Shown: piece by piece, positions 2,139 through 57,222 of the stretch
How the letters are laid out: every line of letters starts with the position of its first letter
Position numbering within the stretch: the first letter of the stretch is position 1
Assembly: GCA_050309605.1 (NCBI GenBank)
Contig: JBNRMN010000033.1
Span: forward strand, 224,001-288,000
DNA from: Anaerohalosphaeraceae bacterium
Lineage (GTDB): Bacteria; Planctomycetota; Phycisphaerae; Sedimentisphaerales; Anaerohalosphaeraceae
Length of the DNA stretch: 64,000 bases
Direction: 5' to 3'
Program-made: the position numbers and the translations under genes
The notes under the pieces: model-generated
Database searches by the model: none
What the model was told of the DNA's origin: nothing
The model's input: the letters and a program-made list of their open reading frames with translations, nothing else

Positions 2139-3188
2139 CTACGAACGGAGTAGGATAGTCTTGAGTTGACGGCATTGTTTTTCTGGATTATCTAATATCG
2201 CCGAGGCCACAGCCACGGCTCGAATCCCCGTTTCCAGTACAGTGGGCAGGTTTTGAGCATTGATGCCGCCGATGGCCACGGGTCGGATAGAGGTGGATGC
2301 CAATTGCTGGACGGCCTGTCGGATGTAGTCCAGTCCTGCCGGCGCAAGGCCGGGTTTGGTCGGGCTGGCAAAGGCCGGGCCAACGCCCACGTAATCATAG
2401 CCTGCGGCGACGGCTTCGTTCAGTTCCTTGATCGCGTGGGTGCTGCCGCCGATGAGCATCGGCCTTTTCAGCAGCGTTCGGGCGGATTTTGGCAACATAT
2501 CGTCCTGTCCGAGATGGACACCGTCGGCCTGCGCCAAGGCCGCAATGTCGGGGCGATCGTTGATGATCCCCAGTGCTCCGTCGGTTCTGCATACCTCCAT
2601 AAACATCTCGGCCAGCGACAAAAAACGGCGGTCGGACAGGTCTTTTGCGCGAAGCTGGAGGGTGTCGGCGCCGCCGGCAATGCAGCGTCGGGCCAGTTGC
2701 CGTGCTGCGGTGTCAGTCGTTTTCGGATCGACGTTAATCAGCACATATAAGCTAATACGTTCGAGTTTATCCAGTTTATATACGGCCTCAAAGACCTTTT
2801 TTTCGAGGTCATACACCCCAAACCGAAGCCGCTCACAGACCGCCGCAACCTCGGCATCCAGCGTCCGGGTCATCTCGGCCAGGACGCGCAGGGCCTCGGT
2901 GGCGCGTTTGGCTGCGGCGGTAAAGCAATCGGCCAGGCTCGTCCGCGAAAGCTGTCCTTCGACGCTCAGTTCGCGTCCCACATCGCCGGCTACATCCCGC
3001 GCGGTCAGCAGGTTCTCCGCATCCAGCCGGGCAATGGCTCCGCACAATTGATGCCGCATTTGTTTGGCCCTGGCGCTGAGGGTTTTATCATCCAGCAGAA
3101 AACGGCAGTACTCCTCCATTCCCCGCAGCGCTTCCCGCGCCCGGTTAAAGTTGGCGTCAATAATTCGATAAAGACTTGTATCGCTCAT
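2139..3188 (-). CDS. thiE: Thiamine-phosphate synthase with N-terminal extension
   Basis: N-terminal RIIDANFNRAREALR extension, then TMP-TenI motifs QLRAK, IINDRPD, DGVHLGQDD, GGSTH, SPTKP, AIGGI. Confidence 0.93.
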   Translation of the reverse strand: MSDTSLYRIIDANFNRAREALRGMEEYCRFLLDDKTLSARAKQMRHQLCGAIARLDAENLLTARDVAGDVGRELSVEGQLSRTSLADCFTAAAKRATEALRVLAEMTRTLDAEVAAVCERLRFGVYDLEKKVFEAVYKLDKLERISLYVLINVDPKTTDTAARQLARRCIAGGADTLQLRAKDLSDRRFLSLAEMFMEVCRTDGALGIINDRPDIAALAQADGVHLGQDDMLPKSARTLLKRPMLIGGSTHAIKELNEAVAAGYDYVGVGPAFASPTKPGLAPAGLDYIRQAVQQLASTSIRPVAIGGINAQNLPTVLETGIRAVAVASAILDNPEKQCRQLKTILLRS

Positions 3189-3233
3189 GGCATTCGCCTG
3201 AATAAACCGACATCAATTCACTGGACGCAACGC

Positions 3234-3262
3234 ATTATACCCGCGCGGCGTGACATTGCCAA
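3234..3262 (-). promoter_or_regulatory. Sigma70-type promoter of thiE
   Basis: Minus strand TTGGCA (3262-3257), 17-bp spacer, TATAAT (3239-3234). Confidence 0.65.
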
Positions 3263-3309
3263 GCGCCGTAATGCCGTCAGAGCGGAGGTGAGAATGCGGC
3301 GTTACCGGT

Positions 3310-4509
3310 TTACTCCAGTGCGAGGATAAAGGGGTTTTCGAGGATTTCGACGACGCGGCGTAAAAAGCGGACGCCGTCGGCGCCGTCGATGATGCGATGG
3401 TCATAAGACAGCGATAATGGTACAATCAGCCGCGGCTGAAGTGTCTGGTCGATATAGACCGGTCGGCGGGTTGCGCGGGCAATGCCGAGGATCGCCGCCT
3501 GGGGCCAATAGATGATCGGTGCAAAGGCGCCGCCGCCCAGACCGCCGAGATTGCTGACGGTGAAATTACCGCCGACCATCTCTTCGGGTGCGACCTTGTG
3601 CTGTTTGGTGCGTTCGGCCAGCGAGGTCAATTCGACCGCGATCTGCAGAAGGCTTTTTTTGTCCACGTCGCGCAGCACCGGCACCAGCAGTCCGCGGTCG
3701 GTATCCACCGCAACGGACAAGTGGCAGTATTGCTTGTAAATGATTTCATTGGTCTGCGGATCGAACGAGGCGTTGAATTGCGCAAAGTCTTTCAAGGCCA
3801 GTGCTACGGCCTTGAGGGCAAGGGCGGTCAGCGTCAGTTTGCCGCCGGCGTCTTTGACCCGCTGGGCGCCGGCCTTGCGTAATTCTTCGAGCGTCGTGAT
3901 GTCGGCGTGGTCATATTGGGTCACCTGCGGGACCGTCGCCCAGGTATAACTGAGTGTGGCGGCGATTTTTTTCCGCGTTGTGGTAACGGCCTTGCGTTCA
4001 ATCGGCCCCCAGACGGAAAAATCGGGCAACGATTTGTCGGCCGGCGCCGCGGCGGGCGGCGGTGACAGCTCACGTTGCGAAGGTCGGTCGTCGGGCACTG
4101 CGCCTGCCGCTTTCGCCCCGTCAGGTTCCGAGGCTTCGGATTCCTGACGCACAGAGGCCGCCGCAGGCGCAGCTCCGACTTCCTTTGGCATAACAGCCGA
4201 ATTCTCCCCTTCGGACTGAGTTGTATCGGGCTGCCGGGGTCCGGGCCGGCCCGTGGGTGTTGTTTCTTCAATTTCCGTTTCCACCTTCATCAGAAGTTGG
4301 CCGACGTTGACGGTTTGTCCCGGTTCGATATGGAGTTCAATCACTTTGCCTTTGACAGGGGACGGCACGTCAAATGTTGCCTTTTCCGTTTCAAGCTGAA
4401 CCAGCGGTTCTTCCACATCAATGACATCGCCGACCTTGACGAAGATTTCGATTACGTCGCCGGATTCAACCGTTTCCGATATTTCAGGGAGCGTGATTTC
4501 TTTGATCAT
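3310..4509 (-). CDS. aceF: Pyruvate dehydrogenase E2, dihydrolipoyl acetyltransferase (one lipoyl domain, degenerate subunit-binding domain)
   Basis: Lipoyl domain with LETEKA, Pro/Ala linker, catalytic domain with SNLGG and SYDHRIIDG; directly downstream of E1. Confidence 0.9.
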   Translation of the reverse strand: MIKEITLPEISETVESGDVIEIFVKVGDVIDVEEPLVQLETEKATFDVPSPVKGKVIELHIEPGQTVNVGQLLMKVETEIEETTPTGRPGPRQPDTTQSEGENSAVMPKEVGAAPAAASVRQESEASEPDGAKAAGAVPDDRPSQRELSPPPAAAPADKSLPDFSVWGPIERKAVTTTRKKIAATLSYTWATVPQVTQYDHADITTLEELRKAGAQRVKDAGGKLTLTALALKAVALALKDFAQFNASFDPQTNEIIYKQYCHLSVAVDTDRGLLVPVLRDVDKKSLLQIAVELTSLAERTKQHKVAPEEMVGGNFTVSNLGGLGGGAFAPIIYWPQAAILGIARATRRPVYIDQTLQPRLIVPLSLSYDHRIIDGADGVRFLRRVVEILENPFILALE

Positions 4510-4539
4510 TTGACATACCTCTTCTGTTTGTTTTTCCGC

Positions 4540-7062
4540 TTACACGGAAAGGGGGTTGGGTTTTTCGGGATCGATTTTCAGTTCCTGTATCGCGCGCTGG
4601 ACCAGGTCCAGTTGGATTTTACCTTCCTGGCTCAGTCCGACCAGGGCCGCCAGTGCAATGTATCGTGCGTCCACTTCGAAATAATCGCGCAGTTCGGCGC
4701 GTCCGTCGCTTCGACCGAACCCGTCGGCGCCCAGCGGCATCAGTCGTCCCGGCAGCCAGCGGGCAATCGAACAGGGCAGCGTCTTGAGGTAATCGGTGGC
4801 CGCGACAAACACGCCCTGCGTGTTCTCGAAGCAGCGTTCAATATAGCAGCGTCGCGTTTCGGACGGATGCAGCATATTCCATCGGGCTGCGGCTGCGGCG
4901 TCTTCATATAAGGCTTTGTAGCTGGTAACGCTCCAGACCTCCGCAGCCACTTCATAGCGCGACTCAAGCAGCTCTTTGGCCTTGACGGCCTCGTTGAGGA
5001 TGGCGCCGCTTCCGAGCAGGATCGCTTTGGGTGCATTGTTGTTCAGGCCGGCGGACTGATACCGATACATTCCCTTAAGAATTCCCTCTTCAACGCCGTC
5101 GGGCATCGGCGGCATCCGATAAAACTCATTGAGCATCGACACATAGTAAAACACGTTTTCCTGTTTCACATACATCCGGTGCAGACCGTCGCGTATAATG
5201 ACCGCCAGTTCATAGGCAAAGGCCGGATCGTAGGCTTTCAGGTTCGGGACGGCATAATAAAAATGATGGCTGTGGCCGTCCTGATGCTGCAAGCCCTCGC
5301 CGGCCAGGGTGGTTCGCCCGGAGATGCCGCCGATCAGAAAGCCGCGCGCCATGACATCGGCCGCGGCCCAGATCAAATCCATCATCCGATGCGCTCCAAA
5401 CAGTGAATAGAAGAAGTAAAACGGGATGATGTTCAGGTCGTGCGACGCATAGGCCGTGCCGGCGGCGATAAAGGAGGCCATCGAGCCGGCCTCGGTAATG
5501 CCTTCTTCAAGAATCGCTCCGTCTTTCTGTTCGTTGTAAAACAGCAGGGTGTCTTTGTCCACCGGTTCGTATCGCTGGCCGGACGGGCAGTAAATGCCGG
5601 CCTGTCGAAACAGCGCTTCCATGCCGAAGGTACGTGCCTCGTCGGGAACAATCGGAACGATGAGCTTGCCGATCTGCTTGTCGTTGAGCAGCTTGGCCAG
5701 CAGGCGAACGACGACCATGGTACTGGCTACTTCGCGGTCGCCGCTGCCTTTAAGAAACTCGTCGAACAACTCATCCGGCGGCATCTGCAGCGGTTTGACG
5801 ATGACCGTGCGGCGCGGCACGTATCCGCCGAGCTGTTTGCGTTGTTCCTGAAGATAGCGGATTTCCTTTGTGTCCGGGTTGGGTCGATAGAACGGCGCTT
5901 CCTGTACCTCCCCGTCCGGGATGGGGATGCCGAAGCGGCTTCGAAATTCGACCAGTTCTTCTTCGTTGAGTTTTTTCTGTTGATGGGTGATGTTGCGTCC
6001 CTCGGCCGCTTCGCCCAGTCCATAGCCTTTGATGGTCTGGGCGAGGATGACGGTCGGTTGTCCGGTATGCTCGATCGCCGCTTTGTAGGCGGCATAGACC
6101 TTCAGCGGATCATGGCCGCCCCGACTGAGCCGACGAAGTTGTTCATCGGACAGGTTGCTGACCATTTCCAGCAGTTTGGGGTCCGTGCCGAAAAAGTCTT
6201 TTCGGATAAAGTCACCGTCGGAGACGGCGTATTTCTGAAATTGTCCGTCGGGGACTTGCTCGGCTCGTTTGGCCAGTCGTCCTTCGGTGTCTTTGGCAAA
6301 CAGGGCGTCCCAGTCCGATCCCCATATCACTTTGATGACATTCCAGCCTGCGCCGTGAAAAATCGATTCCAGTTCCTGTATAATTTTTCCGTTTCCGCGT
6401 ACCGGTCCGTCCAGCCGCTGCAGGTTGCAGTTGACGACGAAAATCAGATTGTCCAGTTTTTCGCGTCCGGCGATGGACAGCGCGCCGAGACTTTCCGGTT
6501 CGTCCATCTCGCCGTCGCCCAGAAACGCCCAGACCTTGCGATCGCTCGGTGCGGCCAATTGCCGGTTTTCCAGATAGCGGTTGAACCGGGCCTGATAGAT
6601 TGCCATCAGAGGCGACAGCCCCATCGACACGGTGGGATACTGCCAGAACTCCGGCATAAGCCGCGGGTGCGGATAGGACGGCAGCCCGCCTTCGGACGCC
6701 AGCTCCGAGCGAAAGTTTTCCATATCAAATCCGCTGAGACGGCTTTCCAAAAACGCGCGGGCGTAAATTCCCGGAGCGGCGTGTCCCTGAAAATAGAGGA
6801 TATCGCCTTTTTGCTCGGGCGTGTCGGCTCGGAAGAAATGGTTAAACCCCACCTCCATCAAGGTCGCTGCGGATGCGTATGTCGAGATATGTCCGCCCAG
6901 TCCCGGTTTGTGGCGATTGGCGCGGATGACCATCGCCATCGCGTTCCAGCGGACAAGGCTTTTGATCCGCCGTTCGATTTCGCGCCGTCCCGGATAGGGC
7001 GGCTGCCGGTCGGCGGGTATCGTATTTACATAGGGTGTTGTTCCGTTCATCTGCGTTCTCAT
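4540..7062 (-). CDS. aceE: Pyruvate dehydrogenase E1, homodimeric AceE type (N-terminally short)
   Basis: GGHISTYAS, YFQGHAAPG, ThDP motif GDGEMDEPES...NCN, LQRLDGPV, PDEARTFG, GRTTLAGEGLQHQDG. Confidence 0.95.
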   Translation of the reverse strand: MRTQMNGTTPYVNTIPADRQPPYPGRREIERRIKSLVRWNAMAMVIRANRHKPGLGGHISTYASAATLMEVGFNHFFRADTPEQKGDILYFQGHAAPGIYARAFLESRLSGFDMENFRSELASEGGLPSYPHPRLMPEFWQYPTVSMGLSPLMAIYQARFNRYLENRQLAAPSDRKVWAFLGDGEMDEPESLGALSIAGREKLDNLIFVVNCNLQRLDGPVRGNGKIIQELESIFHGAGWNVIKVIWGSDWDALFAKDTEGRLAKRAEQVPDGQFQKYAVSDGDFIRKDFFGTDPKLLEMVSNLSDEQLRRLSRGGHDPLKVYAAYKAAIEHTGQPTVILAQTIKGYGLGEAAEGRNITHQQKKLNEEELVEFRSRFGIPIPDGEVQEAPFYRPNPDTKEIRYLQEQRKQLGGYVPRRTVIVKPLQMPPDELFDEFLKGSGDREVASTMVVVRLLAKLLNDKQIGKLIVPIVPDEARTFGMEALFRQAGIYCPSGQRYEPVDKDTLLFYNEQKDGAILEEGITEAGSMASFIAAGTAYASHDLNIIPFYFFYSLFGAHRMMDLIWAAADVMARGFLIGGISGRTTLAGEGLQHQDGHSHHFYYAVPNLKAYDPAFAYELAVIIRDGLHRMYVKQENVFYYVSMLNEFYRMPPMPDGVEEGILKGMYRYQSAGLNNNAPKAILLGSGAILNEAVKAKELLESRYEVAAEVWSVTSYKALYEDAAAAARWNMLHPSETRRCYIERCFENTQGVFVAATDYLKTLPCSIARWLPGRLMPLGADGFGRSDGRAELRDYFEVDARYIALAALVGLSQEGKIQLDLVQRAIQELKIDPEKPNPLSV

Positions 7063-7073
7063 CAGTCGTTAGC

Positions 7074-7295
7074 TCAGGTTTTGCGTGAAGCGCAATAATA
7101 CATTCCCGACAGGCCGCACTGTTCCCACAGCGGGCACTCCGGACAATTGCAGCCGCGTTTTTCGATGGGCTGTTTGGCGGGGCCGCGGGCACAATACAGC
7201 CCTTCTTTGGAGCCTTTGGGGTAGCTCGGACAGGTCGAGCAGTTGCCCTGCATACAGACGGCAAAATGTTCACGGGTATCTTCAACTTTGGCCAT
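7074..7295 (-). CDS. Small Cys-rich protein, DUF2769-like
   Basis: 73 aa with CSTCPSY...LYCARG...GCNCPECPLW...YYC; sits tightly between the encapsulin and aceE on the same strand. Confidence 0.75.
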   Translation of the reverse strand: MAKVEDTREHFAVCMQGNCSTCPSYPKGSKEGLYCARGPAKQPIEKRGCNCPECPLWEQCGLSGMYYCASRKT

Positions 7296-7349
7296 AACAG
7301 CTTATTTCCCGAGCGGTCCTTTTCGGCCGCAACAAGTCAATTCATTGAT

Positions 7350-8165
7350 TTATTTTTTCAATACACATATCGCTTCGGGCTGATTGAGGCAAAGAGCGAT
7401 GCTTTCCGATACCATAAATTCATAGGTATTGCCGGTCGGTCCAATGAAGCTTGTCACCAGATCCCGTCCGAGGACAATGCTTGTGCATTGCCCGCAACTG
7501 CAAAGCAGCACGCCTCCGGATGAGATACCCGGCGCCTTGACGATGCTGTCGGTTATCATTTGCCCGATGTGTTCCAGTTCGGTTTGATTGCCCTGAGGAT
7601 ACCGCCGAAACAGGAAATTATACAGATCGGGCGACAGGGCGAGGGTATACGGTCCGGGAAAGCCCGCCTTGTCCATCGCGGTTATTGCGCGGATCATATC
7701 CTCGGCTGCGGTTCCGACGTTGTCCCAGGAACTGAGTTTGATCGAATGACCGCCGGAGGCGGTAGTCAGGCCTTCCAGTCCGAGCGATTTGGCGCCGTTG
7801 AATAGCAGGGCATCTTCCTGTCGGGCGCAATCAATTGCCGCGGCGGCGGCTCGCCCCAAATCAATGGGCATACCACATTCTTCAAATGCGGCTACGTCGC
7901 GAATGGGCAGAGAAAACTTACTGTAAATCATCACCAGCGGCATCACGCATGGGGCGGTCATCTTGGCGCTGCCGACGGTTTTTTCGTCGAGGGGTTTGTC
8001 TTGGGAAGGATAATCCCGCATGCCCAGTCCAAACGGCCCCTGTGTCGGCAACATCCGCCGCGCGGTCATTTGACTCTTGGCCGCTGCGACGACGGTTTCG
8101 TCAATCTTTGCCCATAATTTTTCGCCGAAGGGCGCATCATTGCGATGTAAAAATCGTTCTGTCAT
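7350..8165 (-). CDS. Family 1 encapsulin nanocompartment shell protein
   Basis: 271 aa; FLHRNDAPFGEKLWAKID...ARRMLPTQGPFG, A(R)QEDALLFNG, GFPGPYTLALSPDLY, C-terminal PEAICVL; ferritin-like gene with a GSL tail immediately upstream. Confidence 0.93.
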   Translation of the reverse strand: MTERFLHRNDAPFGEKLWAKIDETVVAAAKSQMTARRMLPTQGPFGLGMRDYPSQDKPLDEKTVGSAKMTAPCVMPLVMIYSKFSLPIRDVAAFEECGMPIDLGRAAAAAIDCARQEDALLFNGAKSLGLEGLTTASGGHSIKLSSWDNVGTAAEDMIRAITAMDKAGFPGPYTLALSPDLYNFLFRRYPQGNQTELEHIGQMITDSIVKAPGISSGGVLLCSCGQCTSIVLGRDLVTSFIGPTGNTYEFMVSESIALCLNQPEAICVLKK

Positions 8166-8216
8166 AGATGCTCTCCATCATCTTTCATTTATCCTTTTGT
8201 TGATGCTGTTGCCGAG

Positions 8217-8585
8217 TTACGGCTTCAAGCTGCCCGGCGTTGCGATGGACGGTTTCGGCGGCGGTTCATTTGCATCGGAAGGCGAATCGATCTCGGCGGC
8301 CATCTCATCGACTTCCTCGGCGCCTTTGTCCAGATAATGCGCTTCATCCTTCAGCAATATCGCCAGCAAACGCTGGAATTCGCCGACATGAACACGTTCT
8401 TCATTGGCAATATCGAGAAGCACTTTTTTGGCCAACTCATTGTCGGTGGCCTCGGCGTGTGCTTCGTAAAGGGAGACCGCCTCTTCTTCGGCGGCCAGGT
8501 CGAGCCGCAGGGCACGAGCCAGTTCCGCATCGCTCATCTTGCGTCCCGGTACGACTCCGCTGAATGGATTGGTGAATTCCGGCAT
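8217..8585 (-). CDS. Encapsulin-associated ferritin-like cargo protein
   Basis: ELARALRLDLAAEEEAVSLY...IANEERVHVGEF ferroxidase-type half-bundle; acidic/Pro linker ending ATPGSLKP, resembling a cargo-loading peptide. Confidence 0.88.
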   Translation of the reverse strand: MPEFTNPFSGVVPGRKMSDAELARALRLDLAAEEEAVSLYEAHAEATDNELAKKVLLDIANEERVHVGEFQRLLAILLKDEAHYLDKGAEEVDEMAAEIDSPSDANEPPPKPSIATPGSLKP

Positions 8586-8611
8586 TTCAACATGTCTCCG
8601 TCAAGCTCGAT

Positions 8612-9013
8612 TTAATCGGTTACCTCGATATCCACTTCATATTCCCAGCATCCGTGCAGATTGCATCGTTCAAAGGCGCGCAGCTTGCCGTGTCCGTGAT
8701 CCAGCGCCACACAGACCTTCATTGCCGGGCACGTAGTTTTGGCCGTGAAATCCATTCGCGCCAGATACGTCTCACCCGCATACAGCTCGATAAACTGAAT
8801 GAAGTGTCCCGGCTCATTCGGGTGTTTGAGCAGTTTGCCCACTTCGACGGTCACCTCAAAACATTCGCCTTTTTTGACGCGCTTGGGAGCGGTGATTACC
8901 GGCAGATGCTTTTTTTCAAGATCACCGGCCTGCTCCGGATCGGGCACGATATTGACCCCGCAGAAAATGTCTTCCGCGCATTCCTCATTGACCTGTTTGG
9001 CTTTCGTAAACAT
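8612..9013 (-). CDS. Class II superoxide reductase (neelaredoxin type)
   Basis: Iron ligand motifs EKKHLP, HPNEPGHFIQFIEL and CNLHG; no N-terminal desulforedoxin CxxC...CC domain. Confidence 0.92.
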   Translation of the reverse strand: MFTKAKQVNEECAEDIFCGVNIVPDPEQAGDLEKKHLPVITAPKRVKKGECFEVTVEVGKLLKHPNEPGHFIQFIELYAGETYLARMDFTAKTTCPAMKVCVALDHGHGKLRAFERCNLHGCWEYEVDIEVTD

Positions 9014-9108
9014 GTGTCATTCCTTTCCAATTTATTGTGATTCCTTAACGATAAACCGTGCCGCCGCTTCTGCGGTAACTTCTTATACTCAAGCCGTTTG
9101 GATTCCGA

Positions 9109-9127
9109 AATAGGGAAATTCCTTATT
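9109..9127. promoter_or_regulatory. Near-palindromic operator upstream of the SOR-encapsulin-PDH run
   Basis: AATAGGGAAATTCCTTATT; 17 bp are identical to the site at 9970-9986. Confidence 0.7.
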
Positions 9128-9209
9128 TTGTCCTTCACGATCCCTTAAACACAACGACTGTGTGTCGCCCGTCCTGTGATTGTGCGGTCGCAGGACGTTG
9201 GCCGACACG

Positions 9210-9674
9210 TTAGATTTCTTCCACATCGCTGTGGGGCGCAACGGAAAAATCGATCACGGTTTGGATATGAATGCACAACCGCCGCTCCAGTTGCGGCAGG
9301 GGGATTTGCCCTTCGGTTTGCGGCGCATAGCCGTTCAGGACGCCGACATTTTTGTAATCCGTCAGCGTTCCGACCAACTGGTATCCAACGTCCGTTTCTT
9401 TTTCCCACACGACCACTGAAATGCGCCTGTTTTGACGTAAATTTTTGACGGTACCGGGGCAGAACCACTCTGAGATGCTGATGTTCTCCGGTCCGATTTT
9501 TTCCATTTCGCCGGCGGCGGCCAGATGCGGCAAGCCATCGACGTCGGCCGTTGCAATAAAAACATGCCCGACCTTTTTGGCAAGGGCGACGGCTTTCTCG
9601 AGCACGTCGTTTTTTGTGTCGGCTCGTTTGGCCGGGGGGTCGTGGCAGGGATGGGTCGCGGCGGATGTGTTCAT
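9210..9674 (-). CDS. Pyridoxamine 5'-phosphate oxidase-like FMN-binding protein
   Basis: FIATADVDGLPH, TVKNLRQNRRISVVVW, GYQLVG split-barrel motifs. Confidence 0.8.
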   Translation of the reverse strand: MNTSAATHPCHDPPAKRADTKNDVLEKAVALAKKVGHVFIATADVDGLPHLAAAGEMEKIGPENISISEWFCPGTVKNLRQNRRISVVVWEKETDVGYQLVGTLTDYKNVGVLNGYAPQTEGQIPLPQLERRLCIHIQTVIDFSVAPHSDVEEI

Positions 9675-9856
9675 AATGCCTCCGGTTTACACAGGTTTTG
9701 GGCGTTGGCGGCCACACGGCCGCAGTTTTGACAGACAAATTTTCCGTCCCGTACCAGCGATTTGTAATCGTCCGGATAGGAAACCGGATAGCCCAGGTTG
9801 TTCAGATAGCATAGATGTTTGTCGTGGCCCGGATGGGGCATCTTGGGTTTATCCAT
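9671..9856 (-). CDS. Small His/Cys-rich putative metal-binding protein
   Basis: 61 aa with HPGHDKHLC...FVCQNCGRVA...NLCKP; GGGAGA RBS; ATGA overlap with the downstream gene. Confidence 0.75.
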   Translation of the reverse strand: MDKPKMPHPGHDKHLCYLNNLGYPVSYPDDYKSLVRDGKFVCQNCGRVAANAQNLCKPEAL

Positions 9857-9969
9857 CGTTCTGTCTCCCTGTCTGGATTAACATATCTCTTGAGCCGCTA
9901 CGTCTGATATTGAATCCGGTTCATTCAACGGGATAAAATGCAGATTAGCCGCTCGGTGGTGTAAAAGTG

Positions 9970-9986
9970 AATAGGGAAATTCCTTA
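9970..9986. promoter_or_regulatory. Second copy of the near-palindromic operator
   Basis: AATAGGGAAATTCCTTA upstream of the gene starting at 9856. Confidence 0.7.
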
Positions 9987-10140
9987 AAAACTTAGCCCGA
10001 ATTGCTGAATCGATTGAGGCCAGGATCATGAAGCGGTTGTTTTGACGGCTTGAGAGCGGATTTTCTGATAAAAAAACGAGACTCCCCCCCGGTTGGCCCG
10101 TTGTTGTGCGCGTGAAATCGTTTCGTTTGATCAGCGGGGA

Positions 10141-32910: not shown

Positions 32911-33474
32911 ATGAATGACAACTCCATCAATATAACGATTGCCGGTTCCGGCGGACAGGGGGTGGTGGTCATCGGCAACCTGATCGCGCGGGCGTGTGTG
33001 ATTGAGGGCAAAAACGTCAGCGGCTGGGTGGCCTACGGTGCGGAGATGCGCGGCGGTACGGCCAACGCTACGGTGGTGGTCAGCGAGGATGAGATTGCCT
33101 GTCCGTTTGTCGAGACGCCGGATATGGCAATTATTCTTAATCAGCCGTCGCTGGAGCGGTTCGAATCAAGCGTCGCTGAAGGGGGACTGATTTTGCTGAA
33201 CACGTCAATGATTCAGCGACCGCTTGAGCGGGACGATCTGGAACAACTGCAGCTCGGCGCGACGGAACTGGCGCATCGTCTGGGCAATCTGAAGGTGGCT
33301 AATATTGTAGCGCTGGGTGCGTTTATTGATTACACTCGATTGGTGTCGATGGACAGCATTCGCCGGGCGATTGAGGACCTGTTTTCCGCCAAAAAGCCCA
33401 AGATGGTGGAACTGAACCTGAAGGCGCTCGGTGTGGGGGCGGAACATTATACAGTCGGCAGGGTGCGGACTTAA
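32911..33474 (+). CDS. 2-oxoacid:ferredoxin oxidoreductase gamma subunit
   Basis: GSGGQG, YGAEMRGG, NIVALGA. Confidence 0.92.
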   Translation: MNDNSINITIAGSGGQGVVVIGNLIARACVIEGKNVSGWVAYGAEMRGGTANATVVVSEDEIACPFVETPDMAIILNQPSLERFESSVAEGGLILLNTSMIQRPLERDDLEQLQLGATELAHRLGNLKVANIVALGAFIDYTRLVSMDSIRRAIEDLFSAKKPKMVELNLKALGVGAEHYTVGRVRT

Positions 33475-38832: not shown

Positions 38833-41800
38833 ATGCGCACTATGGAGATTATGAGAGGACGCCGCGGCGAGGGTGTCCAGTCCAGTGAGGCGGTCAGGAA
38901 GCAGATACGGGTTTTGGGGATTGATATCGGCTCGGTCAGCAGTGATGTGATTGTGCTGGACGAGCGGGGCCATGTGGTCTTCAAAGACTATCGTCGGACG
39001 CGGGGGCGGCCGGTTGAGACGCTGGCTGAGCAGCTTGAACAGCTGTTTGAGCGGCATTCGTCCTCGCAGTTTGAGCGGATGGCGATTACAGGCTCGTCCG
39101 GCAGGCTGGCCGCTGAGATCATCGGGGCGGCATGTATCAACGAGGTGCGGGCGCAGGCAGTGGGGGTTTCCCATCTCTATCCGGAATTTTCACAGGCCAC
39201 CGTCATTGAAATGGGGGGGCAGGACAGCAAGCTGATCTTTCTTGAAAGCCGCAATGATGTGCTTGAATTGAAGGATTTTGCGCTGAATTCGGTGTGTGCG
39301 GCCGGGACGGGGTCGTTTTTGGACCAGCAGGCCGATCGGCTGGGGGTGTCGATTGAGGATGAGTTTGGTCAGCTTGCGCTGCAAAGTACCGCGCCGCCTC
39401 AGATGGCCGGGCGGTGCTCGGTGTTTGCCAAAAGCGATATGATTCATTTGCAGCAGGTCGCCACGCCGGTGTGCGATATTGTGGCCGGTCTGTGTCTGGC
39501 GCTGGCGCGCAGTTTGAAGAATAATCTGGGCTGCGGCAGGGAGTTTGTCAGGCCGGTGATTTTTACCGGCGGTGTGGCGGCCAATGCGGGGGTCGTGCGA
39601 GCCTTTGAGCAGGTATTGGGGCTGGAGGATGGGGAATTGATTGTCCCGGCGCTGCATTTTTATACCGGCGCGCTGGGTGCGGCGCTGGCGGCTGAGGAAG
39701 GCTCCGGCCGGGCGGTCAAAACAGCGCTGAAAAACCTTCAGGATTCTCTGCAAGCAGGACGGGCGGGACATCAGCGAATCCCGCGTCGGGCGCCGCTGGC
39801 GGCGCCGGTTCTGCCGCCGCCGGAAAGCCGAGTCTATGCCGAACGGCTGGAAACACACCCTGACGGCGAGGCTTATTTGGGGGTGGATGTCGGGTCAATC
39901 AGTACGAATGTGGCGGTGGTGGACAGCGACAAGCGTGTGCTGGCCAAGGAATACTTGATGACGGCCGGGCGGCCGCTGGAGGCAGTGCGGGAAGGGCTGC
40001 GCCGCGTGGGCCGACAGGTGGGCGGCAAGGTGCGGATCGCCGGCGCGGCGACCACCGGTTCGGGGCGTTATCTGACGGGCGACTTTATCGGGGCCGATGT
40101 GGTGATTAACGAGATTACCGCGCAGGCGGCCGGGGCGGTGGCGGTGTGTCCGGAGGTGGATACGATTTTCGAAATCGGCGGGCAGGACAGCAAATACATT
40201 CGGCTGGAAAACGGCGTGGTGGTGGATTTTGAGATGAACCATGCGTGTGCGGCCGGAACGGGATCGTTTCTGGAGGAGCAGGCCCAGCGGCTGGGGATTT
40301 CGATCAAGGATGAATTTGCGGCGCTGGCGGCCCGCAGCCAAACCCCCGTCCGGCTGGGCGAGCGGTGTACGGTGTTTATTGAGTCGGACTTGCTGGGCTA
40401 TCAGCAGCGCGGCGCCAAGACCGAGGATCTGGTGGCCGGTCTGGCCTATTCGATTGTGGCCAATTATCTCAATCGGGTGGTCGGTCGGCGCAAGATCGGG
40501 CACACCATTTGCTTTCAGGGGGGTACGGCGTTTAACAAGGCGGTCTGGGCGGCGTTTGAGACGGTCACGGGCAAGCCGATTCGCGTGCCGGATCATCATG
40601 AGATGACCGGCGCCATCGGCGCGGCGCTGATCGCCGCCGAGCACGTACGCAAGATACGCCGCGGTAACGGCGACCGCTATCAGACGCAGTTTCGCGGGTT
40701 TGAGAATCTTACGCAGGTGCAGTACACCGTTGAGACGTTTACGTGTGAGCACTGTCCCAATGCCTGCGAAATCAAGAAGGTGCAGATCGAAGGTGCCGAG
40801 CCGCTGTATTACGGTTCGCGGTGCGATCGGTATAATGTGCGAAAGGAAAAGGTCGGCGCGGCGGCGGAGGATATTCTGGCCTGGCGGACGAGCAAGCTGT
40901 TTGAACACGCGAATGTGCGCTGGTCAAATACGGGGACATCTGGGCCATCCTCAATTCAGAATTCAAAATTCGAAATTCAAAATTCCAAAACGGTGGCCAT
41001 TCCGCGTGCGTTGATGACGTGGCAGCTTTTGCCGCTGTTTTCGCGTTTTTTCAAGGCGCTGGGTTTTGAGGTCGTCGTTTCGGGCAAAACCACTAAAAAG
41101 ACGATTCGGATGGGGGTTGAGGCGGTGCCGGCCCAGCCGTGTTTTCCGATCAAGGCGGCCTTCGGACATGTGCGCGAGCTGCTGGAGACGCAGCCGGATT
41201 ATCTGTTTATTCCGTTTCTTGCGAGTATGACGCCGGCAGCCGACGAACAGCCGTATCATAAGCTGTGTCCGTATGTGCAGTCGTTCGCGTTTCAGGTGCG
41301 AAGCGCGTTTTCCGGGCGGTTTGGACGGACCCGACTGATCAGCGGGCCGCTGCGTCTGGGCGACGGCGAAAAAGAGATGGTCCAGTCGTTTCGCCGGTTG
41401 GCTGCTGAGCTTGGCGTCGGTGCTCAACAGGCGGACGCGGCACTGAAGGCGGCGCGGTCGGCTCAGGGGGCGTTCGAAAACGACATCCGACAGAAGGGGC
41501 GGCAGATACTGGATTCGCTCGGACCGAACGAGCGGTTGTTTGTGTTGATTTCGCGGCCGTATAACGGGCTGGACGAGGGGATGAATCTGCGGCTGTCGCA
41601 AAAGCTGGAGTCGATGGGGGTGCGCTGGATGCCGATGGAGATGCTGGATACGGCCTCGGCGCCGCTGTCGGACGCGGGGCTGCATCGGTCGGTGTATTGG
41701 AGTTACGGGCAGCGGATTTTGCGGGCGGCCGAGCTGATTCGACGCGATGACCGGTTGTTTGCGATTTACTTGAGTAATTTCAGTTGCGGGCCGGATTCGT

Positions 41801-43233
41801 TTTTGCAGCACTTTTTTACACATACGATGCGTCCCAAGCCGGCGCTGCTGCTTGAGCTGGATGAGCATTCGGCCGATGCGGGACTGGTGACGCGGCTGGA
41901 GGCGTTTTTTGAGAGTCTTAAGCACTATCATTGCGCCGAGCGGCGTGAGCAGGATGCCGAAAGGCCGTCCTGCGGCTCTCTGAGCTGTGCGATGACGCCT
42001 GAACATACGCTGTATATTCCGTATATGGGGGATGTGTCGTATGGGTTTGCGGCCTGTTTCAGGGGCTACGGCCAGTCGGCCCGGGTGATGCCGCCGGCCG
42101 ATGAAGAGACGCTCAATCGCGGGCGGCAATATACAACCGGCAAGGAATGTCTGCCGTGCGCGATTACCATCGGCGAGATGCTTCGGACGACGGATGGCGA
42201 CGGGCCGGGTCATAAATCAGCGTTTTTTATGCCCGGCGGCAGCGGGCCGTGTCGGTTCGGGATGTACAACTGTCTCCAGCGGCTGGTGCTTGGTCAGGTG
42301 GGGCGGTCGGACGCGATGATCCTGTCGCCCAATCAGGATAACAATTTTTACGCCGAGTTTGCGCGGAGCCTGAAGGGGGTTTCATCGACAGTTTTGCTCA
42401 AAGCATTCTGGAAGGCGGTCGTGGGGGTGGATTTGCTCAGCAAGGCCCTGCTGCGGGTTCGGCCTTATGCGAAGGACACTTCGGCGGCGGAATGTTTGTA
42501 TCAGGAGCTGTTAAAGGGGTGGTGTCAGCGGATCGAGACCGGCTCGTCGCTTGCTGATCTGACGGCCTTCATGGAGCTGGCCGCCGACCGACTGGCGGCT
42601 GTGCCGTCAAATCGGTCGCAGTACAAGCCGCGCATCGGGGTCGTGGGCGAGATTTATGTTCGGCTGCATCCGTTTGCCAATAATGATTTGATTCGGCGGC
42701 TTGAAGCGCTGGGATCGGCGTGCGAATTGGCAAGTTTCTCTGAGTGGGTCTATTATGTGAACGCTACGAACATAATGAACGCGCGTCGGCAGGGCCGGTG
42801 GTCTATTGCGGTCGGGACGTGGGTGCAGAACGTTGTGCAGCGTCACATCGAAAAGCGGCTGGCGCGGCCGTTGGAACGGCGGTTCGGTCCGCTGGCTGAG
42901 GGGCCGATTTCGCATCTGCTTGAGTTGGCTCGACCGTATCTGGATCCGGCGTTTGAAGGCGAGGCGGTGCTCAGCGTCGGCAAGATGGTCGAACTGTATC
43001 AGCACGGTTTCGGCGGAGTGGTCAATGTGATGCCGTTTTCGTGTATGCCCTCGACGGTGGTCAGTACGCAGACGCCGCGGCTCAGCGCTGAATGTGACGG
43101 GATGCCGATTTTGAATCTGAGTTTTGACGGACAGGACGACGCTGCGATGACGACCCGACTGGAGGCGTTTGTCGAGCAGGTCCGCCAGCGAAGCCCGGGC
43201 GCTGCGCGTCTGAAGGTTGAAGTCGGAAAATAG
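38833..43233 (+). CDS. CoA-substrate-specific enzyme activase (two BadF/BcrA ATPase domains plus DUF2229-type regions)
   Basis: Two copies of GxDxGS...GGQDSK...CAAGTGSFL; later CFPIK, CGPDSF, LELDEH, GPCRFG, PFSCMP. Start uncertain. Confidence 0.9.
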   Translation: MRTMEIMRGRRGEGVQSSEAVRKQIRVLGIDIGSVSSDVIVLDERGHVVFKDYRRTRGRPVETLAEQLEQLFERHSSSQFERMAITGSSGRLAAEIIGAACINEVRAQAVGVSHLYPEFSQATVIEMGGQDSKLIFLESRNDVLELKDFALNSVCAAGTGSFLDQQADRLGVSIEDEFGQLALQSTAPPQMAGRCSVFAKSDMIHLQQVATPVCDIVAGLCLALARSLKNNLGCGREFVRPVIFTGGVAANAGVVRAFEQVLGLEDGELIVPALHFYTGALGAALAAEEGSGRAVKTALKNLQDSLQAGRAGHQRIPRRAPLAAPVLPPPESRVYAERLETHPDGEAYLGVDVGSISTNVAVVDSDKRVLAKEYLMTAGRPLEAVREGLRRVGRQVGGKVRIAGAATTGSGRYLTGDFIGADVVINEITAQAAGAVAVCPEVDTIFEIGGQDSKYIRLENGVVVDFEMNHACAAGTGSFLEEQAQRLGISIKDEFAALAARSQTPVRLGERCTVFIESDLLGYQQRGAKTEDLVAGLAYSIVANYLNRVVGRRKIGHTICFQGGTAFNKAVWAAFETVTGKPIRVPDHHEMTGAIGAALIAAEHVRKIRRGNGDRYQTQFRGFENLTQVQYTVETFTCEHCPNACEIKKVQIEGAEPLYYGSRCDRYNVRKEKVGAAAEDILAWRTSKLFEHANVRWSNTGTSGPSSIQNSKFEIQNSKTVAIPRALMTWQLLPLFSRFFKALGFEVVVSGKTTKKTIRMGVEAVPAQPCFPIKAAFGHVRELLETQPDYLFIPFLASMTPAADEQPYHKLCPYVQSFAFQVRSAFSGRFGRTRLISGPLRLGDGEKEMVQSFRRLAAELGVGAQQADAALKAARSAQGAFENDIRQKGRQILDSLGPNERLFVLISRPYNGLDEGMNLRLSQKLESMGVRWMPMEMLDTASAPLSDAGLHRSVYWSYGQRILRAAELIRRDDRLFAIYLSNFSCGPDSFLQHFFTHTMRPKPALLLELDEHSADAGLVTRLEAFFESLKHYHCAERREQDAERPSCGSLSCAMTPEHTLYIPYMGDVSYGFAACFRGYGQSARVMPPADEETLNRGRQYTTGKECLPCAITIGEMLRTTDGDGPGHKSAFFMPGGSGPCRFGMYNCLQRLVLGQVGRSDAMILSPNQDNNFYAEFARSLKGVSSTVLLKAFWKAVVGVDLLSKALLRVRPYAKDTSAAECLYQELLKGWCQRIETGSSLADLTAFMELAADRLAAVPSNRSQYKPRIGVVGEIYVRLHPFANNDLIRRLEALGSACELASFSEWVYYVNATNIMNARRQGRWSIAVGTWVQNVVQRHIEKRLARPLERRFGPLAEGPISHLLELARPYLDPAFEGEAVLSVGKMVELYQHGFGGVVNVMPFSCMPSTVVSTQTPRLSAECDGMPILNLSFDGQDDAAMTTRLEAFVEQVRQRSPGAARLKVEVGK
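40953..40987 (+). repeat. Heptamer tandem repeat AATTC(A/G/C)(A/G) x5 inside the activase CDS
   Basis: aattcag aattcaa aattcga aattcaa aattcca, translated as IQNSKFEIQNS. Confidence 0.85.
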
Positions 43234-55489: not shown

Positions 55490-55627
55490 AGTGTCTGTCA
55501 AAAAGCGATATAATCCGCTGTGAATGATTGAAAGGGGAACCTGAGGGCTGCGCAGTGCGTAGAGGCTATACGCCCTGAAGGACAAAAAGCGAATCGGAAG
55601 TTGACGGCTTTTTTAGGAGAAAACAAA

Positions 55628-56263
55628 ATGAGAGCGAAACGGATGAGCTTATGGACCGTGTTGTGTATTGCAATGATGATGGGGGTTGGCTGCCGGCGAC
55701 AAGCCGAACCGGCAGCGCAGGATGAGAAAGAACTGGCCGGGCGCCGGGTGGCGGTCTTGCTGACCGAAGGGTTTCAGGATCAGGAAGCGCTGCATCCGAT
55801 GGATTATCTGGGCGAACGCGGCGCTGCGGTTACGGTGATCGGTCCGTCCATCGAAACGGTCAAGGCGTACAACAGCGATGTGGAAATTACGATTGAACAG
55901 ACCGTGGCCGATGTCTCGGTGGGTGATTTTGATGCGCTGGTCATTCCCGGCGGACAGTCTCCGGCCCGGTTGCGGGAAAATGAAACGGTCGTGGACTTTG
56001 TGCGTGAATTTGTCCAGTCGGGCAAACCCGTTGCGGCGATTTGTCATGGGCCGCAGGTGCTGGTGACCGCCGGCGTGATGGACGGCAAGCGGGCGACCTG
56101 TTATGCGGGGATGTCGGAGGAATTGATCGAGGCCGGAAGCGACTATGAAGATACCGAACTGGTGCGCGACGGCAATCTCATCACCTCGCGGCTGCCGCAG
56201 GACTTGCCGGTGTTCTCGCACGCGATTGCGCAGGCCCTGTTGGAGAAAGCGGGCGGCGTATGA
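55628..56263 (+). CDS. DJ-1/PfpI-family protein with lipoprotein signal
   Basis: MMGVGC lipobox; GFQDQE, IPGG, AAICHGP, ITSR. Confidence 0.9.
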   Translation: MRAKRMSLWTVLCIAMMMGVGCRRQAEPAAQDEKELAGRRVAVLLTEGFQDQEALHPMDYLGERGAAVTVIGPSIETVKAYNSDVEITIEQTVADVSVGDFDALVIPGGQSPARLRENETVVDFVREFVQSGKPVAAICHGPQVLVTAGVMDGKRATCYAGMSEELIEAGSDYEDTELVRDGNLITSRLPQDLPVFSHAIAQALLEKAGGV

Positions 56264-57222
56264 AAGCTATTTGTGTGGATCGGTACGGGCCGCCGGATGT
56301 AATGCAGATCAGGGAAAGGCCAGACCTTTTGGCCGGCGAGGGACAGATTCTGATTTCCGTCAAGGCCGTCGGCGTCAATCCTGTGGACACCTATATTCGC
56401 GAAGGGTGGTATCCGATTAAAAAGCCGCCTGGCTATACGCCGGGCTTTGACGCGGCCGGACTGGTCGAGCAAGTCGGCCGGGGCGTTGAGTCGTTTCGTC
56501 CCGGTGATCGGGTGTTTGTCTGCGGGTCGTTGACGGGTACGTATGCCGAGCAGACGCTGTGTTCGCCGAAGCAGGTGTTTGCGCTGCCGGAGAAGGTGAG
56601 TTTTTCGCACGGTGCGGCGCTGGGCACGCCGTACGGCACGGCCTGTCAGGCCCTGTTCGGACGCGCCGATGCTCAGGCCGGTCAGACGGTGCTGGTGCAC
56701 GGCGCCAGCGGCGGGGTCGGCATCGCGGCGGTGCAGTTGGCCGCGTCGGCGGGGTTGACCGTTATCGCGACCGCCGGAACCGACAAAGGGCGGCAACTGG
56801 TTACCGAGCAGGGCGCGCGACACGCGCTGGATCATCATGACGCGGGTCATTTTGAGGCGGTCAAAGAGCTGACCGACGGACGCGGCGTCGATCTCGTGCT
56901 GGAGATGCTGGCCAATGTGAATCTGGATCGTGATCTGGACATCCTCGCGCCGGGCGGTACTGTGGTTGTAATCGGCAGCCGCGGACGGATTGAAATCGAC
57001 CCGCGAAAAACGATGGCACGCGACCTGAACATTTTGGGGATGAGCCTGATGAATGCCTCAACCGAGCAAAGGGCGGCGATTTATGCTCGCATTCAGGCCG
57101 GTCTGGAAGCGGGGCCATTGTCTCCGGTGATCGGGCAGGAACTGCCGCTTGAGAAGGCCCCCGCGGCCCATCGGCTCGTGATGGAGTCGGCCCATTACGG
57201 CAAGATTGTGCTGATCCCCTGA
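56260..57222 (+). CDS. NADPH:quinone reductase (zeta-crystallin/MDR family)
   Basis: GVNPVD, HGASGGVG, GVDLVLEML, GKIVL. Confidence 0.92.
   Translation: MKAICVDRYGPPDVMQIRERPDLLAGEGQILISVKAVGVNPVDTYIREGWYPIKKPPGYTPGFDAAGLVEQVGRGVESFRPGDRVFVCGSLTGTYAEQTLCSPKQVFALPEKVSFSHGAALGTPYGTACQALFGRADAQAGQTVLVHGASGGVGIAAVQLAASAGLTVIATAGTDKGRQLVTEQGARHALDHHDAGHFEAVKELTDGRGVDLVLEMLANVNLDRDLDILAPGGTVVVIGSRGRIEIDPRKTMARDLNILGMSLMNASTEQRAAIYARIQAGLEAGPLSPVIGQELPLEKAPAAHRLVMESAHYGKIVLIP

Follow-up and report, generated by a model that had tools for sequence, protein, structure and literature searches.

Why should the genes of a pyruvate dehydrogenase (PDH) lie in one cluster with those of a superoxide reductase, a ferritin-like protein and an encapsulin? 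This question is raised by a stretch of 64,000 nucleotides (the window) from an Anaerohalosphaeraceae bacterium (contig JBNRMN010000033.1, positions 224,001 to 288,000). A preliminary description, made from the letters of the window alone, had recorded six co-oriented, closely spaced genes. All six open reading frames (ORFs) are found on the minus strand, with gaps of 26, 51, 54, 11 and 30 nt from the superoxide reductase gene to aceF, as calculated from the coordinates:

8612..9013, minus strand: superoxide reductase (SOR), 1Fe-type, 133 aa; PF01880 100 bits, TIGR00332 75.8 bits
8217..8585, minus strand: ferritin-like cargo protein of the Flp/EncB family, 122 aa, whose C-terminal tail reads ..TPGSLKP; NF058679 112.6 bits (cut-off 90)
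7350..8165, minus strand: family 1 encapsulin (Enc) shell protein, 271 aa; PF04454 235 bits, NF041155 231.7 bits (cut-off 100)
7074..7295, minus strand: DUF2769 protein, 73 aa, with eight invariant cysteines; PF10967 52 bits
4540..7062, minus strand: homodimeric-type PDH E1 (aceE), 840 aa, without the N-terminal arm of about 47 aa that binds E2's peripheral subunit-binding domain (PSBD); TIGR00759 1287 bits (cut-off 859.9)
3310..4509, minus strand: E2 acetyltransferase (aceF), 399 aa, with a lipoyl domain, a Pro/Ala-rich linker containing a decayed PSBD remnant, and a catalytic domain; PF00364 and PF00198

The true start of aceE may be the second ATG, at 7050. No gene for dihydrolipoamide dehydrogenase (E3; lpd) follows aceF, as the preliminary description had also noted, and the next gene encodes a ThiD2-ThiE fusion. 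What is found here is an extended Flp-encapsulin stress operon together with a docking-deficient PDH E1/E2 pair. The answer which we favour, at a probability of roughly 0.55, is that of an oxygen-stress island in an anaerobic planctomycete (Phycisphaerae/Sedimentisphaerales-like) dependent on pyruvate:ferredoxin oxidoreductase (PFOR), in which the PDH would substitute for the oxygen-labile PFOR. In the following, G000 denotes the genome under study, and the other G and L numbers denote related genomes and loci.

Loss of the docking parts in E1 and E2

In Escherichia coli, E1 and E3 both bind the E2 core via the PSBD, and residues 1-58 of E1 form the PSBD-binding segment (accessible text of PMC10849603). 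The cluster E2 of G000 gave no match to the PSBD model PF02817 even at E<=1; the other E2 of the genome scores 29.9 bits. At the position of the orthologues' PSBD, alignment A2 reveals a decayed remnant, AAASVRQ, followed by unrelated residues. The TIGR00759 match of the G000 E1 covers model positions 49-884 of 885, and the N-terminal arm, present in seven of nine aligned orthologues, is missing. Given the attachment of E1 and E3 in E. coli as described in the accessible text of PMC10849603, both sides of the docking interface are gone, so that canonical assembly of E1 and E2 with the stand-alone Lpd is not possible. The ORFs of E1 and E2 are intact and contain the thiamine diphosphate (ThDP) motif, the lipoyl lysine and the DHRxxDG motif.

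Two trivial origins of the truncations were ruled out. A PSBD hidden by a frameshift is not present, the other two frames holding no PSBD-like sequence. An assembly artefact is excluded by an independent DNA run from another study, which covers 3200-10100 with single-nucleotide polymorphisms (SNPs) only and no indels; the SNPs within E1, a small sample, are six synonymous and two non-synonymous.

The E1 and E2 proteins were compared with a collection of 5.8 billion proteins, 120 matches being listed per query. Among the matches listed, the 10 closest E2 clusters (63-93% identical, 371-413 aa) all lack PF02817, a domain present in 107 of the 120. Short E1 proteins of 799-855 aa make up 16 of the 120 matches listed, the 799-aa entry starting inside the conserved body and thus being possibly partial; PF28598 occurs in none of these 16 as compared to 92 of the 104 long ones. 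The closest E1 clusters among the matches listed (P0121 and P0123-P0128; 80-97% identical, 835-837 aa) start M..TTPYVNT like the G000 protein. With the PSBD missing from the 10 closest E2 clusters and E1 just as short in its closest clusters, the undocked E1/E2 is, as judged from these alignments and domain searches, a maintained variant and the conserved state in a clade. Moreover, six short E1 clusters and six PSBD-less E2 clusters match pairwise in the length of their longest contig (10206, 49756, 11979, 61411, 32127 and 102050), which suggests, without proving it, that each pair lies on one contig. The pairs are P0123/P0004, P0124/P0008, P0125/P0003, P0126/P0006, P0127/P0010 and P0128/P0007. 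None of the 120 encapsulin matches listed has a longest contig of the same length as any of them. A stricter first look with E2 at 401 genomes of the phylum had given matches in G000 and G018 only.

Reduced forms of other kinds occur in relatives. G035 has an E1 without the arm. L080/L082 combine an internal deletion of the E1 arm with a lipoyl-only E2 of 79 aa; in G040 the E1 arm is present and is followed by an 82-aa lipoyl-only E2 and an erythrin-like gene. Four genomes of one order (G000:C8, G040:C306, G018:C3 and G035:C7) encode the E2 catalytic domain by itself, in proteins of 224-238 aa that have neither a lipoyl domain nor a PSBD; that of G000 is an orphan domain of 233 aa (L019 8053-8754). 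These proteins could be the trans complement of the lipoyl-only E2 forms, or unrelated acyltransferases.

A further observation concerns the E2 C-terminus (window 3310-3340). E2 proteins of the PSBD-less clade end in ..ALE or similar, about 2-4 residues shorter than the PSBD-containing orthologues (..ALDQNV, ..ALDEND). According to the accessible text of PMC10849603, the last two E2 residues of E. coli are required for assembly beyond trimers.

We found no report of a bacterial PDH E2 without PSBD in the literature searched. An E2 without a canonical PSBD is represented by the mammalian E2o. A maintained PDH E1/E2 pair lacking both PSBD and E1 arm challenges the textbook view that PDH works as a docked complex only.

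Conservation of the gene order

An initial genome scan with a single encapsulin yielded no relatives; an alignment of four encapsulins, applied to one genome per species, then yielded 16 loci. Encapsulin is linked to aceE at four of these 16. The order SOR-Flp-Enc-DUF2769-aceE(-aceF) is complete in L055 and L066, L058 has Enc-DUF2769-aceE-aceF-lpd followed by an erythrin-like gene, and G040 has Flp-Enc-aceE. No aceE was found at the other 12 loci (Verrucomicrobiota, Chloroflexi, Methanolinea and others), two of which, L059 and L068, are too short downstream to tell. G027 carries SOR-Flp-Enc with an encapsulin 27% identical to the G000 shell, and G021 carries OsmC-SOR-...-Enc.

With DUF2769 as the anchor, a scan of metagenomes yielded 75 loci, 52 of them with a DUF2769 at least 59% identical to the query. 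The gene immediately upstream could be evaluated at 42 of the 52; it is SOR in 13, encapsulin in 12, Flp in six, PNPOx-like (see below) in one and another gene in 10. Hence SOR, Flp or encapsulin directly precedes DUF2769 at 31 of 42 loci. The gene immediately downstream, evaluable at 33 of the 52 loci, is aceE in 11 and another gene in 22. Where aceE is missing, other stress genes often follow, among them Ni-SOD with a rhodanese, an aldo-keto reductase with a thioredoxin-reductase-like protein, AhpC, FMN reductase and rubrerythrin. At the 22 loci with a distant DUF2769 (<59% identity) the partners are nearly absent: Flp lies upstream in one of 18, SOR within 2.5 kb in two of eight and an E2 fragment downstream in one of 11.

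The gene order thus recurs in genomes of other species and in many metagenome contigs, so that the arrangement is more than chance. The preliminary description had named an arrangement unique to this genome among the observations that would count against its proposal, and it is not unique. The picture is one of a flexible oxidative-stress island in which DUF2769 is tied most tightly to SOR, Flp and encapsulin, PDH is a frequent and not an obligatory passenger, and encapsulin is optional. For the DUF2769 family this provides a first consistent genomic context, beside SOR.

Three loci show irregular forms. L114 (565-1001) contains a deletion scar, a 60-aa ORF joining the Flp N-terminus to the encapsulin C-terminus. 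In L115 (1551-3082) DUF2769 is followed by a 148-aa E2 C-terminal remnant and then by rubrerythrin. The ORF upstream of aceE in L050 (7965-8525; G044) encodes a trypsin-like peptidase with a C-terminal DUF2769 (PF13365 and PF10967), either a real fusion or an ORF-calling artefact.

E3 and pyruvate oxidation in the genome

The preliminary description had called this PDH E3-less and had named a distant E3 among the observations that would count against its proposal. Such an E3 is encoded in G000, a 3.4 Mb genome that is 99.7% complete: a stand-alone lpd, unlinked to the cluster and on another contig (G000:C82), matches TIGR01350 with 497 bits against a cut-off of 408.8. LipA is found above its cut-off in the same genome. 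Nor does the label hold as a property of this type of cluster. Pfam detects the PSBD in four of four orthologous E2s (36-54 bits), and seven of seven additional E2s of full length carry its motif A[AS]P[SA]VR.LAR.LG; lpd stands immediately after aceF in G018, L058 and L106, and an lpd above the cut-off is located elsewhere in the genome in all five relatives searched.

A profile search of G000 identified a PFOR with 1871.7 bits, and a search for cytochrome bd gave no match in this genome. The genome also encodes GcvT/GcvH and a second 2-oxoacid dehydrogenase, consisting of a fused E1 alpha-beta and an E2 with two lipoyl domains and a PSBD. The usual electron donor of SOR is rubredoxin, of which G000 has one copy, away from the cluster.

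Encapsulin, its cargo and SOR

The encapsulin of the cluster is the sole copy in G000. Among distinct Flp proteins, a C-terminal tail of the type T[IV]G[SND][LM]K is present in all 22 with a shell gene after them and in none of the five without a shell gene, all five of which are only 99-105 aa long. The tail ..TPGSLKP of the G000 Flp resembles that of the encapsulin-linked proteins, and none of the other cluster proteins of G000 carries a targeting tail; Flp is therefore the only predicted cargo. By its protein families the pair is a family 1 encapsulin system, with a shell protein that matches the family models and an adjacent predicted cargo bearing a putative targeting peptide.

For SOR, alignment A5 demonstrates that H36, H64, H70, C117 and H120, presumably the iron ligands, are invariant or nearly so, in agreement with a desulfoferrodoxin ferrous-iron domain (PF01880). 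An N-terminal extension of about 30 aa contains two cysteines, C12 and C18, which are nearly invariant in 20 sequences; it is not a four-Cys desulforedoxin-type centre.

Small cysteine-rich proteins and the upstream unit

DUF2769 has a single match in G000. Its cysteines 14, 19, 22, 35, 49, 51, 54 and 68 are invariant across 53 sequences. An AlphaFold2 model based on these 53 sequences had a mean pLDDT (predicted local distance difference test) value of 59.3, too poor for a fold search, and a complex prediction of SOR with DUF2769 gave a score of 0.01, which is no answer and counts neither for nor against binding. A search of the protein atlas matched DUF2769 clusters only, and the literature in the portions accessible to us describes no function for the family. 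No AhpD, AhpC, Ohr or OsmC family was matched in Pfam or NCBIfam by any of the eight cluster proteins, counting the two encoded directly upstream of SOR:

9671..9856, minus strand: 4-Cys protein, 61 aa, no significant Pfam family; sub-threshold Zn-ribbon match only
9210..9674, minus strand: PNPOx-like (flavin-binding fold) protein, 154 aa, overlapping the 4-Cys gene by 4 nt; PF01243 E 1.2e-5, 26.1 bits, below the cut-off of 28.1
9970..9985, minus strand: operator-like 16-mer AAGGAATTTCCCTATT, a near-palindrome, 114 nt upstream of the 4-Cys gene; this exact 16-mer occurs twice in the genome
9109..9124, minus strand: the other copy of the 16-mer, 96 nt ahead of the SOR start; exact match

By tblastn the 4-Cys gene is a direct neighbour of aceE in G018 and G035; in G040, L058, L080, L084, L087 and L101 it is located close to the cluster. 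In the protein atlas it falls into clusters of 61-aa hypothetical proteins from Planctomycetota and Thermodesulfobacteriota. Homologues of the PNPOx-like protein adjoin DUF2769 or the 4-Cys gene in L087, L101 and L113.

Regulation and transcription

AAGGAATTTCCCTATT is part of a 19-nt near-palindrome, and its two exact copies in the 3.4 Mb genome both lie at promoter regions. Its 13-nt core, with at most one mismatch, was detected in six of 33 regions upstream of SOR or the 4-Cys gene in related loci, two of the six being the same locus. In G018 the core precedes the 4-Cys-aceE-aceF-lpd operon by 89 nt; L058 has it upstream of its 4-Cys gene, and L081, L084 and L092 have it upstream of SOR. 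Such sharing suggests that SOR units and PDH units are under a common regulator.

A promoter scan found no promoter-like site on the minus strand between the encapsulin gene and aceE, a kind of scan that provides weak evidence. Contigs from two RNA libraries cover SOR, Flp, encapsulin, DUF2769, E1 and E2; X20 (7212-7421) bridges encapsulin and DUF2769, and X17 (6957-7325) bridges DUF2769 and E1. Downstream of aceF lie:

3234..3262, minus strand: sigma-70-like promoter site TTGGCA-17-TATAAT for ThiD2-ThiE, where the unit probably ends; matches the consensus at 11 of 12 positions
2139..3188, minus strand: ThiD2-ThiE fusion (thiamine phosphate synthase), the next gene after E2; own promoter-like site

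The promoter which the preliminary description had assigned to thiE is accordingly present as a sigma-70-like site at 3262-3234, by consensus match only. The ThiD2-ThiE gene lies directly downstream of the genes for the ThDP-dependent E1/E2; as tblastn query its protein found no match in any related locus searched.

Other genes of the window and occurrence of the organism

Some further genes of the window are listed here:

32911..33474, plus strand: 2-oxoacid:ferredoxin oxidoreductase gamma-subunit-like gene; NF006323 113.6 bits, below the cut-off of 235
38833..43233, plus strand: protein of 1466 aa; two ATPase domains, acyl-CoA dehydratase activase-like (BcrAD/BadFG-type)
55601..57222, plus strand: DJ-1/PfpI family gene beside a PIG3-type NAD(P)H quinone oxidoreductase gene, further redox-stress candidates

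A DJ-1/PfpI gene is also located near the cluster of G040. Metagenome runs labelled as poultry litter, soil, gut, biogas fermenter and sludge contain DNA near-identical to that of G000; each of them has 60% or more of the sampled words.

Discussion

How would such an island work? The favoured reading starts from two adjacent units on the same strand, one with the 4-Cys and PNPOx-like genes and one with SOR-Flp-Enc-DUF2769-aceE-aceF, each placed behind the same 16-nt site. Upon exposure to oxygen SOR would remove superoxide, and Flp, taken into a small encapsulin shell via its C-terminal tail, would oxidise and sequester Fe2+. With PFOR inactivated, E1 and E2 would still convert pyruvate to acetyl-CoA, by a route insensitive to oxygen. 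DUF2769, rich in Cys and probably metal-binding, would be a partner of the SOR/Flp block and not of the PDH. Without docking, E1, E2 and Lpd would have to meet by collision via the swinging lipoyl domain, or else the dihydrolipoyl group would be reoxidised by another acceptor. The data show the identities of the genes, the conserved synteny, the duplicated site and the loss of both docking elements with its conservation in a clade; we infer induction by oxygen, the role of PDH as PFOR substitute and the way in which the lipoyl group is reoxidised.

An oxygen-tolerant backup for ferredoxin-linked pyruvate oxidation had been offered in the preliminary description as its second choice; it has become the best-supported reading because the genome has a PFOR and no cytochrome bd was found in it. 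Studies in Bacteroides thetaiotaomicron lend it background. [quoted passage not shown] The planctomycete cluster resembles a natural version of this PDH repair, combined with SOR and iron sequestration in one gene cluster. It offers a testable model of how strict anaerobes of digesters, compost and sediments survive oxygen pulses.

Several points weigh against this reading. G000 has lost the canonical means of docking E1 and E3 to E2, and since this loss is maintained in the clade, an efficient NAD-linked complex is not assured. In G040 and L080/L082 the E1 is accompanied by a lipoyl-only protein of 82 and 79 aa, respectively, and no E2 catalytic domain, a combination which a plain PDH role does not explain. 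The 16-mer has no copy near the organism's own lpd. As for transcription, the promoter matches are to consensus only, terminator-like sites are no commoner than in shuffled sequences, and the RNA-library contigs may stem from DNA carry-over.

The fate of the lipoyl group is the point at which the idea placed first in the preliminary description comes in, namely a pyruvate-driven, lipoyl-mediated antioxidant relay, in which a Cys-rich protein (DUF2769 and/or 4-Cys) instead of a docked E3 would reoxidise the dihydrolipoyl group and pass electrons to SOR or erythrin-like peroxidases. Before this step E1 would have acetylated the lipoyl domain reductively, and E2 would have released acetyl-CoA. 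We consider it unlikely as a whole; the loss of PSBD and arm leaves room for an E3-independent fate of the lipoyl electrons. Precedents for such relays exist in the Lpd-DlaT-AhpD-AhpC system of mycobacteria and in lipoyl-dependent Ohr/OsmC. OsmC is treated as a lipoyl-dependent peroxidase in the accessible text of PMC8346489. The tight and recurrent order SOR-DUF2769-aceE-E2/lipoyl-(erythrin-like) would suit a relay, as would the eight invariant cysteines of DUF2769. Docking has been lost repeatedly and separately, in the E1 arm (G000, G035, L080/L082) and in the PSBD (G000 and the lipoyl-only forms), E1 and the lipoyl domain having stayed intact; the pair lacking both parts is conserved in the clade, six pairs matching in the length of their longest contig. 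DUF2769 is nevertheless tied more to SOR, Flp or encapsulin (31/42) than to aceE (11/33), the PSBD is retained in most orthologous clusters and an lpd is included in some, and lpd is present elsewhere in all five relatives searched. SOR takes one-electron donors, for which rubredoxin is available elsewhere in the genome, and no cluster protein matches an AhpD or AhpC family. The PDH part also decays in some lineages, as in L115 with its E2 remnant only. A bolder version, that the clade has turned PDH E1/E2 into an undocked, E3-independent module in which pyruvate charges a lipoyl domain, free-swinging or free-standing, whose dithiol is drained by DUF2769/4-Cys to SOR and diiron peroxidases, appears to us slightly more doubtful still; if true, pyruvate, piling up when oxygen knocks out PFOR, would become the reductant for oxygen detoxification.

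Decay of the PDH part leads to the opposite view, of no functional link at all: aceE-aceF would merely stand beside a mobile or variable set of oxidative-stress genes, as a decaying PDH with its assembly parts lost. The cluster is indeed patchy: of 61 relatives, G000 counted among them, 8 were found to have aceE of this clade and 4 the encapsulin subfamily, and the encapsulin is unmatched in six genomes of the same genus that are 76-99% complete. Deletions and remnants are seen in several lineages (L114, L115, lipoyl-only E2), and two thirds of the evaluable loci have a gene other than aceE behind DUF2769. Yet decay without function is disfavoured because the catalytic motifs of the intact E1 and E2 ORFs (ThDP motif, lipoyl lysine, DHRxxDG) are preserved and the reduced forms are conserved, the arm-less and PSBD-less state extending across clusters of 80-97% (E1) and 63-93% (E2) identity. 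The independent DNA run, with no indels and mostly synonymous SNPs in E1 (six to two, a small sample), and the operator core that also precedes the PDH operon of G018 speak against it as well, and we hold it to be quite improbable. We give hardly any credence to packing of E1, E2, SOR or DUF2769 into the encapsulin shell or their attachment to it. Gene adjacency alone suggests it; it is disfavoured because all four proteins lack the tail common to all 22 encapsulin-linked Flp, and many lineages have the SOR-(Flp)-DUF2769-aceE cluster without any encapsulin.

Comparison with known systems

Measured against the E. coli-type PDH (aceE-aceF-lpd), the G000 proteins are alike in their homodimeric-type E1 above the equivalog cut-off and in their E2 with lipoyl and catalytic domains, and relatives have the complete aceE-aceF-lpd order. 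They differ in that E2 lacks the PSBD, E1 lacks the N-terminal PSBD-binding arm and lpd is unlinked. With the Lpd-DlaT-AhpD-AhpC and Ohr/OsmC systems the cluster shares a presumably lipoylated E2 or lipoyl protein encoded among antioxidant enzymes; unlike them it has no AhpD, AhpC, Ohr or OsmC match, and its terminal enzyme would be SOR, which takes single electrons.

SOR operons of the rbo-rub type in anaerobes consist of SOR followed by a gene for a small Cys-rich protein. SOR directly before DUF2769, as at 13 of the 42 evaluable loci, resembles this order. DUF2769, however, is not a rubredoxin, since its eight invariant cysteines follow a different pattern, and the true rubredoxin is encoded elsewhere.

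In the literature searched, no encapsulin operon that includes SOR or PDH was found described; papers naming encapsulin together with PDH deal, by the titles listed, with nanocages or engineering, and those naming it together with SOR describe no such operon in title or abstract. The main text of the encapsulin survey PMC8346489 does not contain the words pyruvate, superoxide or desulfoferrodoxin; its supplementary figures may show such neighbourhoods. With family 1 encapsulin systems with Flp/EncFtn/EncB cargo, the G000 cluster has in common a shell gene that follows the gene of a ferritin-like cargo with a C-terminal targeting tail. The two-gene Flp-encapsulin core alone is the state of most relatives, whereas in G000 this core is embedded in a longer operon with SOR, DUF2769 and PDH E1/E2.

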